DNA of 24,502 nt from Candidatus Heimdallarchaeota archaeon (GCA_016839945.1 JAEOTE010000055.1:1-24502), one strand, 5' to 3'. Shown: positions 2,885 to 22,151, numbered from the stretch's first letter. The notes: generated from the sequence alone by a model not told the origin. Made by a program: numbers and translations.

Positions 2885-5824
2885 TTGATTAATGTGAAAA
2901 TATTGGAGAAAATTTGGAAAAAACCAAAATACCTTGCAATTGGTATAATACTATTTTGGTTATTAATTGTCTCCACAAATTTTAACAAAGTCCTCAATGT
3001 TTTTGATTACGTTAGTGAAGAAGGAACAAATGTTGCTACAGGGTCCACTACTGAATCAAAAACAGGATTAGATATTTTAGCTAGATTTAGTGATGTTAAT
3101 AGTACATTTCAATTGATTGTTCATAATCCTAATGGATCAATCATTACAGAAGAGTCAAAACAAACAATCACTCAGATAATAAACAACATCACGTATAATC
3201 CAAAAATCGGTCCTTATCTTTCACCAAATTCTCCATATTCCTCATTATATGATGATGCAGATGATATTTTAAGAACAATTTTTTCTCTTCAATGGTATGG
3301 TACACAAATGGCTTTTGCTTCAATTCATTATATCTGGGCAGGAATTGATTTTTTTAATGCTGAATGGATTGATGCATATAACATAACAGGAGATGTTCAA
3401 CAATCTTCCAATGTTAGCAAACTACTCACAATAGATTATGTGACACAGTTATTGCATGATAATAATGAATCAAGATATTCAACTGATGCGGAAACCTTCA
3501 TTAGTTCATTCACTAGTAGTTTTACTTACCACGCTAACATAAGTCTTCCAAATACTACTTCTGAAGCTCTTAATATATCAAAAACCATTATCGCCTCAAA
3601 TGAAACACTGTTTGAATCTTTTTCTTCAGATAACAGACAATATGAATTATTAATTGCTATATCAAGTGAATTCAATGGTAGTGAATGGAATAATCAAGAT
3701 TATGCTTTTGAAAGGATAACTAAATTTCTTTTTGGTGTCAATGATACTTCAAGCATTGACTTTGTAAAAGAAGTTTTTGCAAATGGTGATATTGAAGGAT
3801 TTGTAAGAGCAAAAAATAATTATCTTCTCCCAATATTAAGAAAGGAGGTTTTTGTACCTTCTTTATCTGAAGAAATAATCAACGCATTCTTGATGCAATA
3901 TACCAATTATCAAACTGATCTTGAGGTTACTGATACAACAATCATCGTATTTAATTTAGCTCTAGATCACATAACTGAAAATGGTAAAGGAGCATATTTA
4001 GAGTTAATAAGAATTTTACCTATTCTCAATGAGAATTTTTCTCCAATGGAAGTTTATGCGACTGGAATAGATTATTATGTTATTGAAATATCTCTTGATT
4101 ACGAAAATCAGCTTCATAGAACTGATTTAATTGTAGTTATTACAATAATAGTAATTCTTCTTTTAGTATATAGATCCCCCATCCTACCACTCATTCAAAT
4201 CTTTGTTTTAGGAGTAGCTTTTTGTGTTTCTAGAATATTTTTTGTTGGAGTTGGTAATCTTGTTGGTGGTTTAGCGAGCACTAGTTTAATTATTCTAAGT
4301 GTAAGTCTGCTAGGTGCAACTACTAATTATTGTGTTTTTTTGATGGGTGATTATTTATTGAATCTTAAAAAGCACAAACAGAAAATTTCAGCATTAAAAG
4401 CAACATTGAATAGAACTGCAAGAAGTATAATGATTTCATCAATAGCTCTAGCTGTTGGTTTTGGTGCTTTGATATTTAGTGGTTTTCCTACAGCAACTGG
4501 TTTGGGAATTGGAGGAGCTTTAGGTTTTCTTACTAGTATGCTAGTTTCCCTTACTCTAGTCCCCTCAGTTTTAGTTTTAGTTAATGATAAAATTCTTACA
4601 AAATGGAAACTAGATTTAAAGAAACTCAAAATTCCAAAACTATCTGTTAGTAAAGCATTAAGAAAAGCAGTCAACAATCCAGTCAAAGTTCTTGTAATTG
4701 CACTAATAATAGCAGGAATAGGTATAGGAATTTTCTTTATAGTTCCTTTAGATTATGCTCAAATTACAACAGCACCATCATATTACCAATCAAGACAAGG
4801 TGTTGATGCTATCAATCAGCATATGGGAACAGAATATATTAGTCAAATTATGATCGTATTTCAAACTCCAGAAACAAATCCCTTTCTCCATGAAAACAAT
4901 AGTCTAAATTTTGAGCATATAAACCATATTGTAGATATTGCAGAAAATGCATCGATTCAGGCAAATGTAACGCGGATTATTGGATTAAGTCATCCTCTAG
5001 GACAACCTTATACTGAAAGTTTGCAAAATACATCTTTATTCTTAAGAGAAGAAATCTATATTCTTATGAAGAATTTTGTGATGGCTGAAGAAACTATAGC
5101 AATCGTTGTTTTTGGTTCACAGTTCAAAGAAGGAGATGAATTACTTGATGAACAAATCGTTACTATCAGAGAGAGTATTGAAGAACAAAAAGAAGTAAAG
5201 AATCTCATTCAATGGAACACGTACGTAACAGGTTTTGCTCCAAGACTTTATGATACGAAAAATGAAATTGCAAAAATTTTCAACTTAATATTTGCACTTA
5301 CTTCTTTAGCTATTGTAGTTTTGCTTTTTATCTTTCTTAGAAAATTCTTTATGTCATTACGAGTACTTGTTACTATTCTCATTTCCTTAGGAATGAGTTT
5401 AGGAATATTTGCGATATTTAGTCTTATCTTCTTTGGTGGTTTTATTTATTGGATAGTTCCTTTGATGTTGTTCGGTGTTCTTACTGCACTTGGGTTAGAT
5501 TTTGATGTTCTATTTCTAGGTATTTTCATACATATAAATAAAGAGAAGGACGATCCCAAATCATCAATAGTTGATTCAGTAGAACAAACAATGAATAATA
5601 TATCTATAGCAGGATTAATTATGGCTGCCACTTACTTAAGCTTGCTATTTACCTCTTCAGTCCAAATGCAGCAATTAGGTCTGGGTCTTGGTATTGGTAT
5701 ACTGATTGATGTCTTTATTTCAAGAATATTTATTGTTCCTCCAGCTGTCATAATTACATTCAAGGAGAGTAAGAAGAAGAAAAAAATAAACAGTGAATCA
5801 GAAGGTGAAACAAATGAAGTATAG
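2885..5824 (+). CDS. MMPL-family (RND superfamily) transporter
   Basis: Two repeats, each with 1 TM, a large extracytoplasmic domain and 5 TMs. Motifs include VYRSPILPLI, GATTNYCVFL, SLTLVPS, ALGLDFD, IAGLIMAATY and ILIDVFISRIFIVPP. Confidence 0.88.
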   Translation: MINVKILEKIWKKPKYLAIGIILFWLLIVSTNFNKVLNVFDYVSEEGTNVATGSTTESKTGLDILARFSDVNSTFQLIVHNPNGSIITEESKQTITQIINNITYNPKIGPYLSPNSPYSSLYDDADDILRTIFSLQWYGTQMAFASIHYIWAGIDFFNAEWIDAYNITGDVQQSSNVSKLLTIDYVTQLLHDNNESRYSTDAETFISSFTSSFTYHANISLPNTTSEALNISKTIIASNETLFESFSSDNRQYELLIAISSEFNGSEWNNQDYAFERITKFLFGVNDTSSIDFVKEVFANGDIEGFVRAKNNYLLPILRKEVFVPSLSEEIINAFLMQYTNYQTDLEVTDTTIIVFNLALDHITENGKGAYLELIRILPILNENFSPMEVYATGIDYYVIEISLDYENQLHRTDLIVVITIIVILLLVYRSPILPLIQIFVLGVAFCVSRIFFVGVGNLVGGLASTSLIILSVSLLGATTNYCVFLMGDYLLNLKKHKQKISALKATLNRTARSIMISSIALAVGFGALIFSGFPTATGLGIGGALGFLTSMLVSLTLVPSVLVLVNDKILTKWKLDLKKLKIPKLSVSKALRKAVNNPVKVLVIALIIAGIGIGIFFIVPLDYAQITTAPSYYQSRQGVDAINQHMGTEYISQIMIVFQTPETNPFLHENNSLNFEHINHIVDIAENASIQANVTRIIGLSHPLGQPYTESLQNTSLFLREEIYILMKNFVMAEETIAIVVFGSQFKEGDELLDEQIVTIRESIEEQKEVKNLIQWNTYVTGFAPRLYDTKNEIAKIFNLIFALTSLAIVVLLFIFLRKFFMSLRVLVTILISLGMSLGIFAIFSLIFFGGFIYWIVPLMLFGVLTALGLDFDVLFLGIFIHINKEKDDPKSSIVDSVEQTMNNISIAGLIMAATYLSLLFTSSVQMQQLGLGLGIGILIDVFISRIFIVPPAVIITFKESKKKKKINSESEGETNEV

Positions 5825-7433: not shown

Positions 7434-9217
7434 AAAATGAGCAACTTCAATCTAAGAAATATGTTTTAGATACAAATTTCTTTATTAGCGGTTTTGAGAA
7501 GAATCCTGCTGATTTTAATATATTCTTAGAGATTGCTCAAGACTTAGAAATTGAACTTTACGTATCCAATCACATCATGCAAGAAATCAGATGGTATTTA
7601 AGGAGGAGAGTTAAAGATCCTGTTCAATTTATAAGAATCCCAATAAAAGAAATCCGAGAGTATAAAGAGGAAATAGAAAAAGAACAAGTTTCCACACCTA
7701 GTCTAAATGATTTATCTAACATAGTAGTAGCAAAAAGAATAGGAGGGATTGTAATATCTAGCGATTTGAAGCTAGTAAAAACATGTGAAGCTTTGGATGT
7801 TCCAGTTCTTATTAGTTCTTCCTTTATATTCCTGTTGAACAATGTTAGCACAAAGACTGAACAAAAAGTAATGTTAGAAAAAATCTATGACACTATTCTT
7901 TCAGATGAGATAAGACATTCAGTAGAAAAAAGACAAACCTATGACCCAGTTACAAGAATAAAGAAAATCCAAGAACATGCTCTTTCAGTTCTTCAGAATA
8001 TATCTAAAGTTAATCATGTAAAACAAGAAGTTGTTCAAGAACAGCATTATCTTCTTCCTGAAGAGAGCAATTTGATTGAGATAATGAATGAAATAGAATT
8101 TGAGTTTCCAATTTTTCTAGATCAATTAGAAAAAGGAAACCTAGAAGTTCTCCGTTTTGAATTAATTGAAGCATATACAGTACTGTCAGATTTATCTTTA
8201 GAATTGAGAGTAGCATTAATGGATAAAGAAAGCTATACTGAAGAGCTTGCGATTAGATTAAAGGCACGAATTTTATTTCTACTTAGTGTAGCAGAGTTTA
8301 CTCTTTTGGATTTAGAAAAATTGGATGGGCATCTTAATATCTTAATAGAAATTTCTCTAGTATATCCAAAATTAGTTGCAGATTTTTTCATGGACTTACA
8401 TTTTCTCAGAATGGTATATTTTCTTGTCACCAACAATCATGAACGTTTAAAGGGATATTATTCTGAAAAATTTCTTTTCTTATGTGAAAAGCAAGAAAGA
8501 ATAGATCTTCTGAGACTTACAAGAGTTGTGATTTTAGCTTCAACAATCATGGAAAGTGGATTGATTGATAAGAGAGCTGTTATAGATGGAAAAGATGAGA
8601 TTTCACTTCTAATCCAAATTGGGTATATATTGCTTCAGAATGAACAATTTGAACACGCTTTACTTATTCTTTTACAGTCACACTACCTTGCTGTAAACCT
8701 AAAGAATCAGCTTCATGCTAAAGACACTCTAGAACTTCTAGTCATTTTACATTATTCTATCAAAGAAAGATGCACAGAAGAGATTTTTCAAGGTATAGAG
8801 GACTTAAAAGAATTAGGGGTTTTTGAGTTACCAAACATCAGTTTTGCAGATATTAATGAGCTACAAAGAATCGTTACAACTGAATTTGTACCTTTAGATG
8901 ATTTATCTTCATTTCTAAAAGATTGGTTCTACATTTATCATGCAGGAACTGTAGTCAGAGAAGGTGAAATTTCATCATTTATTCTTATGAAGAATCCATA
9001 TTTTTCTCCTAGAATTGCATTGATTAGAAAGACACCCTTTTCTTCATATGACACAAGTCCAGGAAGACAAATCAAGTTATTCGAAGGAAATGCTAAAATC
9101 TCAATTCCTAAAGAAACAACAATTGATGGTTTCCCTATTGATCTAGTTGTTGAGTTTCAAGAAAAGGACAGCAAGTTCATTTTCCGCGGACCTTTTGGAA
9201 TGAAAATCATTCTGTAG
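7430..9217 (+). CDS. PIN-domain protein with a long helical region and a C-terminal beta-rich domain
   Basis: N-terminal VLDTNFF...MQE...NDL...ISSDLKL is a PIN pattern. ATGA start/stop overlap with the upstream gene. Confidence 0.75.
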   Translation: MKNEQLQSKKYVLDTNFFISGFEKNPADFNIFLEIAQDLEIELYVSNHIMQEIRWYLRRRVKDPVQFIRIPIKEIREYKEEIEKEQVSTPSLNDLSNIVVAKRIGGIVISSDLKLVKTCEALDVPVLISSSFIFLLNNVSTKTEQKVMLEKIYDTILSDEIRHSVEKRQTYDPVTRIKKIQEHALSVLQNISKVNHVKQEVVQEQHYLLPEESNLIEIMNEIEFEFPIFLDQLEKGNLEVLRFELIEAYTVLSDLSLELRVALMDKESYTEELAIRLKARILFLLSVAEFTLLDLEKLDGHLNILIEISLVYPKLVADFFMDLHFLRMVYFLVTNNHERLKGYYSEKFLFLCEKQERIDLLRLTRVVILASTIMESGLIDKRAVIDGKDEISLLIQIGYILLQNEQFEHALLILLQSHYLAVNLKNQLHAKDTLELLVILHYSIKERCTEEIFQGIEDLKELGVFELPNISFADINELQRIVTTEFVPLDDLSSFLKDWFYIYHAGTVVREGEISSFILMKNPYFSPRIALIRKTPFSSYDTSPGRQIKLFEGNAKISIPKETTIDGFPIDLVVEFQEKDSKFIFRGPFGMKIIL

Positions 9218-10154
9218 TTTCAGAGGTCCACTTTTGAATAGTATCTATAATCTCTTGAGATTCAATTGGATGTCTTTTTATTTTTTCAAGAAGTTGACTT
9301 AATTCATGTCGTCTAGTAGTTGTTAAAGCTCCCATCTCCATCAATGCATCTCTTGCTTTTGTAAAAGCATCTACTAGTTCATCTCTATTGCTTCCAACGT
9401 ATACTACAGATAGAAGATTTTCGAAAATCTGTTCTGGAGCTAATCCACTCCAATTTTGTGAGACATCAGTCATCTCAGCAAAATCAGAAGAGACTAACAC
9501 ATATCCTTTTCCTACTTTCTTCACATTTTCCTTTTGAACCAATCTAAATAGAGCTCTGTTTGCTTCTTGTGGATTTAAATTTATTTTTTGAGTGATTTCC
9601 TCTTCAGTTTGAGGCATTTCATCCTTAAGAAGGACTCCTAGAATCTTTTGTTCATCAGTTCCGTTTTCTCCAGAATGTTTAATCAGATTTGTTAGAGATT
9701 CAACGAAAATTTCATTTGTTGGTCGTTTGAAGAAGGACATCATTTTTGAAATATAATCGTTAGTAGGATCACTTAAATCGTCCTTTTTTTCAACAATAAC
9801 TTCAGCAACAGGTGCTGTAGGTATTGGACTATTTTTTAGTTGATCAATCTCTTGTTCTTTTTCCTTTAGCAAGTTTTGTAATTCATACTCTCTATCGCTT
9901 CTTGCTTTTTTATCTTGTTCAAAATATAATCTTTCTTCTTCTACTTTACTAGAATAATTACCCAATTCTTGATCTTTCTGTGCTATAACAGCATTAAGAT
10001 CAACTATTTGTTTTTGAAGATCCTCTAATGCAGCAGTTTGATTTGCTAGTCTTTGTTGGAGTTGAGCTATAAACTCTTTTTGAGCTTGTTCTCTTAATTT
10101 TGCCTTTCTAGGATCATCAGATGAATCTTCTGTATCGAATGGATTATGAACCAT
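9207..10154 (-). CDS. Hypothetical coiled-coil + winged-helix + helical C-terminal domain protein
   Basis: Heptad-rich Q/E/K segment of about 90 aa, a Pro-rich linker, and wHTH-like EQKILGVLL..PQTEEEITQKINLNPQEANRALFRLVQKENVKK. ATG at 10154 is preferred over the TTG at 10187. Confidence 0.7.
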   Translation of the reverse strand: MVHNPFDTEDSSDDPRKAKLREQAQKEFIAQLQQRLANQTAALEDLQKQIVDLNAVIAQKDQELGNYSSKVEEERLYFEQDKKARSDREYELQNLLKEKEQEIDQLKNSPIPTAPVAEVIVEKKDDLSDPTNDYISKMMSFFKRPTNEIFVESLTNLIKHSGENGTDEQKILGVLLKDEMPQTEEEITQKINLNPQEANRALFRLVQKENVKKVGKGYVLVSSDFAEMTDVSQNWSGLAPEQIFENLLSVVYVGSNRDELVDAFTKARDALMEMGALTTTRRHELSQLLEKIKRHPIESQEIIDTIQKWTSETTE

Positions 10155-10244
10155 ATCTATCCCTAATCTTAATTCAAGAAGAAACAAATAAAGTTATTTA
10201 TTCACAAATAAAATAATGAGATAAATAAATGCTTGAAAATATTT

Positions 10245-10856
10245 CTAACAGACTTTCAAGATCTCTTTAACTATAATGTCAAAATATTCTGTATTCTTGT
10301 CAACAGTAACATATGGCCATAATTCGTTTTCTGTACTCATCATATAGTCTGATAAAGCCATAACATCACCAACACCATATCCAAGTTCCTTTTTGTTTCT
10401 TGCTAGGAAATTATCAAAATTTCTAAGTAATTTATCTTCTTCTGCTTTTGCTCCTTTTGTATCTTCTATTCGATCTGGATTGTTGAGTCTATTAAATCTA
10501 GTTCTCATAGAAGTATGAAATGCAATGACAAAAACATTATCATCACCATAATGTTTCTTCAAAACTTCAACTTCAGAAACAGCCCTGATACCAGATAGAA
10601 AAACTCCAGGAATATCATCTGAAAGAACATCAACTTTTTTCATTAATCTTTCAGTGAAATAACTGTCCGAGATTTTTTTACATTCGTCTGTGACTTTCTT
10701 AATGTTTTCAGGTGTAAATTCAAGACCTCTTCCAGTTACTTCTTCTAAAACCTCAGTTCCAGTTTCATATAGAGGCATATTATATTTAGGACCTATTTTT
10801 TTAGCATAAGTAGTTTTACCACACAATGGCAAACCAGAAAGTACAATAATTTTCAC
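10245..10856 (-). CDS. UPF0200 / dephospho-CoA-kinase-like P-loop kinase
   Basis: Walker A GLPLCGKTT, SGIR..SEV, and C-terminal ARNKKELGYGVGDVMALSDY typical of this archaeal family. GTG at 10856 follows a GGTGA SD. Confidence 0.75.
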   Translation of the reverse strand: MKIIVLSGLPLCGKTTYAKKIGPKYNMPLYETGTEVLEEVTGRGLEFTPENIKKVTDECKKISDSYFTERLMKKVDVLSDDIPGVFLSGIRAVSEVEVLKKHYGDDNVFVIAFHTSMRTRFNRLNNPDRIEDTKGAKAEEDKLLRNFDNFLARNKKELGYGVGDVMALSDYMMSTENELWPYVTVDKNTEYFDIIVKEILKVC

Positions 10857-10872
10857 TTTATTCACCTTTATT

Positions 10873-10945
10873 TTTGGCCAGAGAGCACTTTCTCTTCACC
10901 GCTAGCCATGACATTGCTCCGAGAAGTCTATGATAAGCTCTGGCC
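10873..10945 (-). ncRNA. Candidate K-turn-containing small RNA, H/ACA-guide-like
   Basis: About 49% GC island in AT-rich intergenic DNA. It has a basal stem GGCCAGAG/CUCUGGCC, an internal loop, an upper stem UUCUC/GAGAA, a K-turn (CGGA opposite GGUGAAGA) and a 3' AAA. A TATA-like TTTATATT lies about 21-28 nt upstream. Confidence 0.6.
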
Positions 10946-10999
10946 AAATATTATTGAAAATATGTAATATAAAAAATCGCTGGTTGGAATATAAGAAAA

Positions 11000-12229
11000 T
11001 TAAAGGAGTCTTTTTTCTCCTTCTAGTTTCTTAATATCTGCAATATTCTGAGTAACTTCAAGTACTCCTTTGTATTCTCCTTTCTCATTTCGCAATGGGA
11101 AATATCTTATGTAAACTAATTTTTCTCCAAGATTTAACCAAAAATCTGCTTTGTCTAAAGTATTATTTCTAAAACCTTCAATAATTTTTAGTACTCTGTC
11201 AACACTTTTATCTGGATGACAATTTTCTACTGATCTTCCTACAACACTTGGAGTTCTGACAAAAATTCTGTCTGGACCTTCGCTATAGAATTTTACTATA
11301 TTATCTTCATTTACATATGTGATATCAACTGGGAGAGTCTTAAAAAGCATTAAAAGTTGTTCCAAAGATAAAGCACCAGTACCGAAATCAATCAAACTGG
11401 AATCTATTTCTTCTTTTGGTTCCTCCTCACTAACAGCTGTAATCTCTGGTAATTCAGGAGTGAAACAGCAATAACCAACTTCATCAAATTGCTTTCTTAT
11501 CTCTATCCATTCTGAATCCTTAAACAGTTGCATAGCTGTTGGGAAAAGAACACGATTTTCTTTTGAAAAGTGTTCAGCTAATAGCTCTGCTAGTCCATGA
11601 GCATGGAGGTGATATTGTTTTACAAATTCTTGATAATCTAGAGTTGATTTATTCTCTATTAATGAATATAATTTCTTTTCAATATCTCTTATTCGATCAT
11701 GATCCATCCACATTATTTTTGGTGGTTGAGTAACACCATATTTTTCTAATTGAGAGAATAGAATGTTTTCTTCTCGTAAATAATGACTTTCTGAAGCTTT
11801 CAGATGTTTAACAATTCCTTCTATTTTAGTTAGTTCATCTTCCATCTCAGCAAGACTTCCTTTTTCTTTGATTTGTTTATATAAATCACGTAATTCGTTC
11901 GCATATTCTAGGAGTAGTGAATGTTCTTGCATCAGTATGTTTACTGGATGTCCTTCAGGAGCCAAATCTGCATCTTCTTTTAATGATTCTTGCATAACTG
12001 CTAAATGAACATCACACATATGGTGTATCTCTTCTGCAGGCATACCTTCTTTAATTAACAGTTCCTCAGCTTGTGAAATTTGTAGTGGGGTTAATTTTTT
12101 AATAACTCCTTTAAATTCCTCTTTTACTTTCACAGGATCTTCTCCCCTGTGTAATTTCTTGATTAATTCCTTTATTATTTCTTTATTTTCTTCTGAAGAC
12201 TTACCAATCTTTTCATGCATCTTAACCAC
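11000..12229 (-). CDS. DUF438 + hemerythrin-like + PAS domain protein
   Basis: IKKLHRGED...ISQAEELLIKEG...MCDVH (DUF438), GHPV..LMQEH, HYLREENILF, MWMDHD and HFSKENRVLFP (hemerythrin), and LPVDITYV...RIFVRT...NCHP...GVLEVTQ (PAS). An alternative ATG lies at 12220. Confidence 0.9.
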   Translation of the reverse strand: MVKMHEKIGKSSEENKEIIKELIKKLHRGEDPVKVKEEFKGVIKKLTPLQISQAEELLIKEGMPAEEIHHMCDVHLAVMQESLKEDADLAPEGHPVNILMQEHSLLLEYANELRDLYKQIKEKGSLAEMEDELTKIEGIVKHLKASESHYLREENILFSQLEKYGVTQPPKIMWMDHDRIRDIEKKLYSLIENKSTLDYQEFVKQYHLHAHGLAELLAEHFSKENRVLFPTAMQLFKDSEWIEIRKQFDEVGYCCFTPELPEITAVSEEEPKEEIDSSLIDFGTGALSLEQLLMLFKTLPVDITYVNEDNIVKFYSEGPDRIFVRTPSVVGRSVENCHPDKSVDRVLKIIEGFRNNTLDKADFWLNLGEKLVYIRYFPLRNEKGEYKGVLEVTQNIADIKKLEGEKRLL

Positions 12230-21827: not shown

Positions 21828-22151
21828 TTAGTTTTGTTTTGTATTTTGTAATTTTCTTGATTTTTTTCCTTTTGTGATTTTCTTTTGCCTTACATCTAGA
21901 GGTTTCCTATCGATTATGTAAAGCACAGTATCTTTTGGGATTTTATCCTTAAATTGAGGTTTTAGTTTAACACTTACATATGGTTTTTTTACTGGCCCAA
22001 AAATATCAAAAACATTACCAATATGTTCCATATTTTCATTGACAACGTTTGACCCAATTTTGGGGAGTTTACCAGGATTGTAAATGATAGCATTTCCAAT
22101 GTCAGAGAAATGAACTATTGAACCAAGTTTCTTAATGCGAGAAGGGATCAT
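21828..22151 (-). CDS. gar1: H/ACA RNP subunit Gar1/Naf1
   Basis: IGNVFDIFGPVKKPYVSVK and a basic tail; it lies next to srp19. Confidence 0.88.
   Translation of the reverse strand: MIPSRIKKLGSIVHFSDIGNAIIYNPGKLPKIGSNVVNENMEHIGNVFDIFGPVKKPYVSVKLKPQFKDKIPKDTVLYIIDRKPLDVRQKKITKGKKSRKLQNTKQN

Follow-up and report, generated by a model that had tools for sequence, protein, structure and literature searches.

Archaeal single-hairpin box H/ACA guides, as known from the Pab and Pf RNAs of Pyrococcus, have a lower stem of 8-9 bp, a large internal loop, an upper stem of 5-6 bp and a K-turn with its 3-nt bulge on the 3′ strand (PMC2377435, PMC4652768). The ranges established by experiment in Pyrococcus are a lower stem (H1) of at least 7 bp, an upper stem (H2) of 5-6 bp and a spacing of 14-15 nt (PMC2377435), and productive folds in the i/j/k (GA-stem) notation are 10/5/9 or 10/6/9 (PMC4652768). 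The ACA box itself can be missing. The single stem-loops of Haloferax volcanii sR-h45 direct typical pseudouridylation without ACA; in the Haloferax/Methanocaldococcus system, a single-hairpin guide does not need the box for typical guiding (PMC7075261). In Pyrobaculum and Sulfolobus, atypical H/ACA-like sRNAs are devoid of ACA, bind both L7Ae and Cbf5-Nop10 and are active (PMC4652768, PMC11077068); ACA-less guides are functional in Sulfolobus (PMC11077068).

A full-text search of the literature on Asgard small RNAs found nothing on the topic. Kink-turns (K-turns) are not confined to guides: Daume et al. in 2017 and Huang et al. in 2019 are said to have described L7Ae-binding K-turns in the 5′ leaders of archaeal mRNAs, together with the autoregulation of L7Ae.

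The window analysed here is a stretch of 24,502 nucleotides from Candidatus Heimdallarchaeota archaeon (GCA_016839945.1 JAEOTE010000055.1:1-24502), for which an unannotated K-turn small RNA with H/ACA-guide geometry and its own promoter had been proposed on the minus strand. The features of the locus are the following.

10966-10980, minus strand: putative promoter, a purine/GC-containing BRE-like stretch followed by the TATA box TTTTTTATAT, recognized by conservation and constant spacing
10973-10966, minus strand: TATA-like box as given in the original prediction, TTTATATT
10945-10876, minus strand: hairpin small RNA of 70 nt, GGCCAGAG-CUUAUCAUAGAC-UUCUC-GGA-GC-AAUGUCAUGGCUA-GC-GGU-GA-A-GAGAA-AGUGCU-CUCUGGCC, then AAAAA
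10938-10945, minus strand: lower stem, 5′ strand GGCCAGAG (pairs 1-70 to 8-63)
10926-10937, minus strand: internal loop ("pocket"), 5′ strand CUUAUCAUAGAC, with the core YCAUAGAC
10921-10925, minus strand: upper stem (H2), 5′ strand UUCUC, pairing with 10894-10890
10895-10920, minus strand: K-turn and apical hairpin
10920-10918, minus strand: K-turn, non-bulged strand N-G-A
10917-10916 with 10902-10901, minus strand: K-turn C-stem GC/GC, extended by an irregular hairpin with a YAUG loop
10900-10898, minus strand: K-turn, 3-nt bulge N-R-U
10897-10896, minus strand: K-turn, G-A of the sheared G.A pairs; position 3b is 10895
10890-10894, minus strand: upper stem (H2), 3′ strand GAGAA
10884-10889, minus strand: internal loop, 3′ strand AGUGCU, of which WGCU alone is kept family-wide
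10876-10883, minus strand: lower stem, 3′ strand CUCUGGCC
10871-10875, minus strand: 3′ tail AAAAA, the site expected for an ACA/ANA box
10245-10867, minus strand: downstream P-loop nucleotide-kinase-like gene (AAA_17), SD included

The sequence, the 8-bp basal stem (10945-10938/10883-10876; 11 bp in the DNA with the flanking TTT/AAA) and the 5-bp upper stem are present as they had been described, and the GC content of 37/76 nt is confirmed.

The RNA has in common with the Pyrococcus guides the lower stem, the large internal loop, the upper stem and the K-turn with its 3-nt bulge on the 3′ strand. Unlike them, it has no conserved ANA, no rRNA or tRNA target that could be found and an invariant apical hairpin; its 5′ loop strand is of 12 nt, and its 3′ loop strand falls to 4 nt elsewhere in the family. 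sR-h45 possesses a natural ACA box and known 23S targets, whereas this RNA has neither. The atypical sRNAs of Pyrobaculum and Sulfolobus are, like it, K-turn hairpins without ACA, but they have free guide arms and no lower stem, and here a perfect, covarying lower stem of 8 bp is found. The K-turns of L7Ae leaders lie near a start codon, as does the RNA in the genus of the present genome. Conversely, those K-turns are located at the ribosome-binding site of the L7Ae gene, whereas this one is ~45 nt from the SD, in a closed hairpin ahead of a kinase gene, and is kept where the kinase gene appears to have a separate promoter.

Conservation, promoter and structure of the hairpin RNA

The fold of the single sequence, with an MFE of -22.9 kcal/mol and z = -1.4 against shuffles, is unremarkable, so that the sequence by itself would prove nothing; the weight lies with comparative evidence. 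Rfam 15 gives no family match at gathering scores in the window, only chance-level matches in the region 10700-11150 at E values up to 10, and no H/ACA family that matches the hairpin; the Infernal search against Rfam that had been recommended thus returned no relevant family at gathering or permissive thresholds. ARAGORN finds neither a tRNA nor a tmRNA in the window. A separate hairpin on the minus strand at 10996-11025, GAAGGAG-AAAAAAGA-CUCCUU followed by UUUAAUUUU, likewise has a chance-level Rfam match only. It covers the last codons and the stop of a DUF438/hemerythrin/PAS_10 gene and may be the transcript-end structure of that gene.

A 141-nt query matches the region in 23 of the 24 other genomes of the genus. 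In a genus alignment that spans the segment from the upstream stop codon to the kinase gene, the hairpin has a mean pairwise identity of 0.93 over 70 nt (22 genomes); the values are 0.40-0.52 for the flanking spacers and 0.68-0.79 for the neighbouring coding regions. With covariance models built from the genus sequences, 28 of the 30 genomes of one Heimdallarchaeia family, distributed over four genera, yield a single copy each, and three other families in the order and another three in the class yield none. Metagenome contigs add 13 copies, all of the same form, in an exact-pattern scan. The hairpin is a genuine small RNA gene, strongly conserved in one Heimdallarchaeia family, and the claim that it is an unannotated small RNA is borne out by the absence of an Rfam match, the 93% identity and the covariation described below.

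The TATA-like box and the promoter that had been assigned to the RNA also find support among the relatives. The 10-nt TATA block (TTTTTTAWAT) is 86% identical within the genus, where the adjoining spacers reach 40-45%, and its distance to the first G of the hairpin is constant at ~25 nt in every genus. An invariant T directly precedes G10945, which is the predicted transcription start. The best explanation for the locus would be a stand-alone RNA gene of about 70-75 nt, transcribed on the minus strand from its own putative TATA promoter.

The structure was tested at the lower stem (1-8/63-70), the upper stem (21-25/52-56) and the K-turn C-stem (29-30/44-45). All 15 pairs are intact in every sequence, with standard pairs in 270 of 270 cells, and four of them show compensatory changes in the genus alignment; none of 500 shuffles reaches the observed values of pairing and covariation. 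When the partners are slid by 1-3 columns, only 38-52% of the cells are paired. The check for covariation in relatives, which had been suggested together with the prediction, is therefore positive. In the lower stem, compensatory changes from C-G to U-A or from G-C to A-U occur at pairs 2, 3 and 4, and three pairs covary once the other genera are added. The upper stem shows a compensatory U-A to C-G change inside the genus (pair 21), and its CUCUC/GAGAG is elsewhere CCAGC/GC(AC)UGG, CCGGG/CC(AC)UGG or CCAGUAC/GUGUUGG. Covariation is present in all three helices. In all genera compared, the 3′ strand measures exactly 19 nt between the K-turn and the foot of the lower stem. The G-U pairs found in some species at 22-55, 25-52, 30-44 and 35-40 would be A-C mismatches on the opposite strand, which indicates that the minus strand is the RNA.

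The loops and the apex are conserved in a different manner. The core YCAUAGAC of the 5′ loop strand is common to all four genera, and the strand is invariant within the genus, one lineage excepted. Within the genus, columns 57 (A/U/C) and 59 (U/A) of the 3′ loop strand vary; in the genera g10, g12 and g13, columns 57-58 pair into H2, leaving a 3′ loop strand of 4 nt (AGCU). The apical hairpin, GAGC-RAUGYUAUGGCUAGC, is near-invariant in sequence. Such constancy is uncommon among H/ACA guides, and it hints at a further partner or at a different one. Taken together, the alignments show strong purifying selection for a predicted structure of lower stem, loop, upper stem, K-turn and apical hairpin.

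Other foldings were considered. Pairing of CAUAG (columns 14-18) with YUAUG (columns 35-39) in a loop-loop pseudoknot is unsupported, as two independent U36-to-C changes, in the present genome and in g12, are uncompensated. The apical helix proposed by RNAalifold (34-45 and following) is 90% paired and broken in four cells of ten distinct sequences, whereas the standard K-turn C-stem model is 100% paired; the latter is preferred on this ground. The lower stem could on paper also pair in another register, AGAGCU with AGCUCU, whose columns are invariant; MFE folds mostly take the 8-bp register.

The K-turn was found where it had been placed. Its non-bulged strand reads 5′-N26-G27-A28-G29-Y30 and its bulged strand R44-C45-N46-R47-U48-G49-A50-N51; G27, A28, U48, G49 and A50 are unchanged in every sequence, so that the tandem G-A positions are invariant. 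The 3b.3n pair (G.A, A.A, U.U, U.C, C.A and others) and L1 vary freely, and free variation at both is tolerated in K-turns. The GC/GC C-stem that had been described is present, with pair 29-45 an invariant G-C and pair 30-44 a C-G, U-G or U-A; it is longer than first drawn, since it continues as an irregular hairpin (29-45, 30-44, 32-42, 34-41 and 35-40) capped by YAUG. Some relatives have CUGA on the one strand and GUGAUGA on the other, which is the box D/C consensus bound by L7Ae. Tandem sheared G.A pairs, a 3-nt bulge and a Watson-Crick C-stem can all be assigned in the aligned sequences. The predicted K-turn shows the signature RUGA-N opposite N-GA, which is that recognized by archaeal L7Ae, and L7Ae would be expected to bind it.

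The H/ACA-like architecture and the search for a target

The reading of the RNA as an H/ACA pseudouridylation guide stands in part: the build of stem, pocket and stem and the K-turn are upheld, and the ANA box and the target are not. An 8-bp lower stem, paired in 100% of cells, closes the internal loop, where at least 7 bp are expected. The upper stem has 5 bp followed by 3b.3n and two G.A pairs; it ends in the K-turn with the bulge on the 3′ strand, and the orientation of the K-turn is the same as in Pf9-type guides. In the genus of the present genome, the geometry of 8 bp (H1), 5 bp (H2) and 14 nt from H2 to the stem end falls inside the ranges of PMC2377435. The 14 nt that had been counted from the upper stem to the 3′ box hence hold for this genus, but in g10, g12 and g13 only 12 nt separate the pocket from the end of the stem, which departs from the 14-15 nt rule. 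In i/j/k notation the RNA is 8/6/8, or 10/4/8 with columns 57-58 stacked in, and neither form is one of the productive folds. Genes for the Gar1, Nop10 and L7Ae partners of such particles are present: gar1 is in the same window, as had been stated, at 21912-22136, and nop10 and two L7Ae-family genes are found elsewhere in the genome.

The AAA that had been taken for an ANA box is not conserved as such. The triplet after the stem is AAA, AAU, AAC, AAG, ACG, AUA, AGU, ACU or GUU among relatives; only its first A is kept in most genomes, and in one genus this is a G. Because single hairpins can guide without ACA (PMC7075261), the missing box is not disqualifying.

No assembled rRNA exists for the present genome, and the rRNAs of relatives were used instead. 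The 16S and/or 23S RNAs from 15 related genomes that carry the sRNA were scanned with each genome's own loop sequences, with a pocket of 12/6 or 11/4 nt, offsets of 0-2, UN or UNN, and G-U pairs and one mismatch allowed. No conserved site with bipartite complementarity to the loop strands around a U-N appears in the 16S/23S RNAs of the 15 genomes, the best scores are at the level of shuffled guides (87 of 100 shuffles are as good in G004), and no rRNA scanned contains a site that pairs the four 3′ nucleotides in full together with at least six of the 5′ strand. The one outlier, position 728 of the 23S RNA of G009, was discarded, as the position is G and not U in three other aligned rRNAs. With G-U allowed, the complement of YCAUAGAC occurs in no 16S RNA, and in 23S RNAs only in G-U-rich form and unsuitable context. 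Two short rRNA similarities, UGGCUAGCU in 23S RNA and GUGCUCUCUG in a variable 23S region, were judged to be chance. The rRNA flanks were negative as well, no targets were found in 22 ARAGORN-predicted tRNAs, RNase P RNA or SRP RNA, and target counts in the whole genome equal those of controls, with no enrichment. The target that had been put forward, AGCACU-UN-GUCUA, is accordingly absent, also in relaxed forms, from the 16S/23S RNAs of 15 genomes, the 22 tRNAs, RNase P RNA, SRP RNA and the genome.

The 23S genes of the relatives (L027-L030, L036, L037 and L109) are mostly of 3.4-3.6 kb, and of 4.1-4.4 kb in G017, G021 and G046, with an archaeal model of 2987 positions as the reference for length. 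Such lengths indicate expansion segments, and introns are probable as well. In G004, G002 and G005, a single contig carries the 16S and 23S genes in divergent orientation.

The same script recovers a known kind of site. As a positive control served a three-hairpin HgcG/Pab40-like H/ACA RNA, found in nine genomes of the genus (L095-L103, e.g., L097:1501-1785, plus strand) and not found in the present one; for its hairpin 3, the helix-69 site of 23S RNA, GAGCUAAC-UA-UGAGCU, was retrieved in both genomes tested. This control RNA scores 33-59 bits, under the Rfam cut-off of 77 bits (RF00064). It occurs in the same genomes as the hairpin RNA and has the same style of K-turn, with one bulged nucleotide in the upper stem; it has the helix-69 match and an internal ANA, whereas the RNA studied here is a single hairpin without such a match. 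ANA is kept in its internal boxes, and AUA, AUU or ACU follows the 3′-terminal hairpin. Given this degenerate terminal box in an RNA with a helix-69 match, a strict terminal ACA seems dispensable in the lineage, in agreement with PMC7075261 and PMC11077068.

A second K-turn hairpin sRNA, which is outside the window, is present in 21 of 24 genomes of the genus, on contig C16 of the present genome at 4060-4132 (plus strand; L115:1061-1133). It has a lower stem of 10 bp, AGCGAAGUUU/AAACUUCGCU, whose first pair covaries, a pocket of UCUCGU / YUCG, an upper stem of 8 bp, a K-turn and a freely covarying apical stem, followed by A-Y-N (no ANA) and T-runs. In several genomes the 23S gene shares its contig, at a distance of about 6-17 kb. 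Its best rRNA match, AAUGAA-UUG-ACGGGA at ~position 915 of 16S RNA, is not above shuffled guides. Its apical stem covaries freely, whereas the apical hairpin of the first RNA is invariant, which leaves room for an extra partner or for a non-guide role of the latter.

Membership of the H/ACA class is thus partly supported: the architecture, the orientation of the K-turn and the 14-nt spacing fit, and the ANA and the target do not. A probability of roughly 0.45 can be given to the reading as an atypical, orphan member of the H/ACA class, in which the RNA is bound by L7Ae, keeps the classical lower stem, has neither an ACA box nor a substrate identifiable among the stable RNAs, and is at most a candidate guide.

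The kinase gene and the competing readings

The foremost rival, though a doubtful one, is a trans-acting K-turn RNP without Cbf5, in which the RNA would serve as a scaffold, chaperone or antisense RNA and would contact a protein or an mRNA through the apical hairpin and YCAUAGAC. A guide pocket would not require the degree of invariance seen in the apical hairpin and in the 5′ loop strand, and the same reading would accommodate the lack of an ANA box, the short 3′ loop outside the genus, the lack of a target in stable RNAs and the existence in the genus of a second ANA-less K-turn hairpin sRNA. On the other hand, we know of no other archaeal RNP class with a hairpin of stem, loop, stem and K-turn, and no complementary site is enriched in the genome.

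A different possibility, already raised in the original prediction, is that the RNA is a cis-acting 5′ leader of the kinase gene; L7Ae, as proposed there, another K-turn-binding protein, or a small ligand lodged in the conserved internal and apical loops in the manner of a riboswitch would set translation or stability of the mRNA. The nearest solved relatives of the kinase are the UPF0200 protein SSO1041 and an AdkA-like protein. Its SD, AGGTGA, is at 10867-10862 and its start codon is GTG at 10856-10854, as established by alignment with relatives (ATG/GTG-AAA-ATT). A start at GTG 10865, given by a mechanical ORF call, was rejected; it is inside the SD and is contradicted by that alignment. 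In the genome G001, a reading frame that begins within the sRNA continues into that of the kinase and could mislead gene callers into an over-extended ORF.

The place of the RNA relative to this gene is constant. The kinase gene is the next gene downstream on the same strand at every genome locus whose flanks were read (four genera) and in 12 of 12 metagenome contigs with inspected flanks, while the upstream neighbour of the RNA differs among genera. In the genus of the present genome (g1) and in g12, 15-24 variable nucleotides, SD included, separate the hairpin from the start codon. Since this stretch contains neither a T-run nor a TATA, the promoter of the sRNA is, in these two genera, probably also the one from which the kinase mRNA starts. 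Moreover, the RNA is single-copy, and a K-turn with invariant loop nucleotides and covarying stems is also found in several bacterial riboswitches.

In the other two genera the arrangement is different. A conserved BRE/TATA-like block, AAAAAA-TTAAATAT, precedes the kinase ATG by about 25 nt in g10, where no SD is present, and the predicted arrangement is that of a leaderless mRNA. In g13, runs of T5-T7 directly follow the hairpin, and a TATA-like block, TTTATTTTATA, stands before the kinase gene. In both genera the lower stem, the loop core, the K-turn and the apical hairpin are kept, and the upper stem alone is rewritten. As the core of the RNA persists despite these separate promoter-like blocks, its conserved function is unlikely to be the control of the kinase in cis. 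The spacer between the hairpin and the start codon is 52% identical and ranges in length from about 15 to about 60 nt, and no expression platform that would connect an aptamer to the SD or to a terminator is conserved, as a riboswitch or leader would need; no SD-sequestering pairing that holds across relatives was seen. No hairpin of this kind lies upstream of the kinase orthologues found in three other families of the order. The gene after the kinase is also syntenic with the RNA and the kinase, so that the adjacency may be plain conservation of gene order. The gene at 9207-10187 (minus strand), which is syntenic with the kinase gene across genera, encodes a coiled-coil protein of 326 aa that has no Pfam match and a weak match to a Sta1-type winged-helix regulator. 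Of the L7Ae-bound leader, the constant position upstream of the kinase is retained, and the separate promoter-like blocks of g10 and g13 and the T-runs of g13 speak against it. A regulatory leader of the kinase gene is an unlikely reading, and so is a purely cis-regulatory one.

Still less probable is a non-guide K-turn RNP peculiar to Heimdallarchaeia, either a K-turn-containing sensor controlling the UPF0200-type kinase or a non-modifying H/ACA particle similar to snR30/U17 with a role in RNA processing; the invariant apical hairpin and the YCAUAGAC/WGCU loop would then bind a specific protein or a small ligand.

A box C/D sRNA was rejected, as there are no terminal C/D boxes: the ends are GGCCAGA and CUGGCC, and the D′/C′-like pair is internal only. 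A small peptide, read from the AUG at columns 37-39 (MASGEE...) or from that at columns 32-34, can be dismissed as highly improbable: AUGGCU is invariant and opens a frame of 12-17 codons in all genera, with some variable columns at third codon positions, but conservation is as high in the 5′ half, which is outside the frame and changes in concert with the 3′ half (pairs 2-4, 21 and the upper stem), the peptide differs radically between genera (ESV, ALE, PLE), no SD is conserved and the AUG at columns 32-34 is lost in g13.

Proposed particle and its significance

The preferred reading is the L7Ae-bound particle of the H/ACA class. The RNA would fold as a lower stem, a large internal loop, an upper stem, a K-turn and an apical hairpin. 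L7Ae would bind the K-turn, and the RNA would then most likely assemble with Cbf5-Nop10-Gar1 into an H/ACA-class particle, because archaeal single-hairpin box H/ACA RNAs share its architecture and the orientation of its K-turn. A substrate RNA may be held between the conserved loop strands YCAUAGAC and WGCU, and this substrate would be outside the stable RNAs scanned, which would make the RNA an ACA-less "orphan" member of the H/ACA group. In the genus of the present genome and in g12, the 15-24 nt that lead to the kinase start contain neither a terminator nor a promoter, so that the kinase transcript probably carries the RNA at its 5′ end, and the RNA may be cut out of it.

Asgard archaea are the closest known relatives of eukaryotes, in which H/ACA and other K-turn RNPs have diversified into orphan, processing and scaffold roles. 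In this regard, the RNA represents a well-delimited candidate, with a promoter, a 70-nt structure, covariation and a K-turn, and with a lower stem yet neither an ACA nor a target. Annotation based on Rfam misses small RNA genes of this type in the Heimdallarchaeia lineage. If the RNA is part of a Cbf5 particle, it would extend ACA-less guiding beyond Crenarchaeota and to a new architecture, and would point to an unconventional substrate; otherwise, it would belong to a new class of K-turn RNPs.
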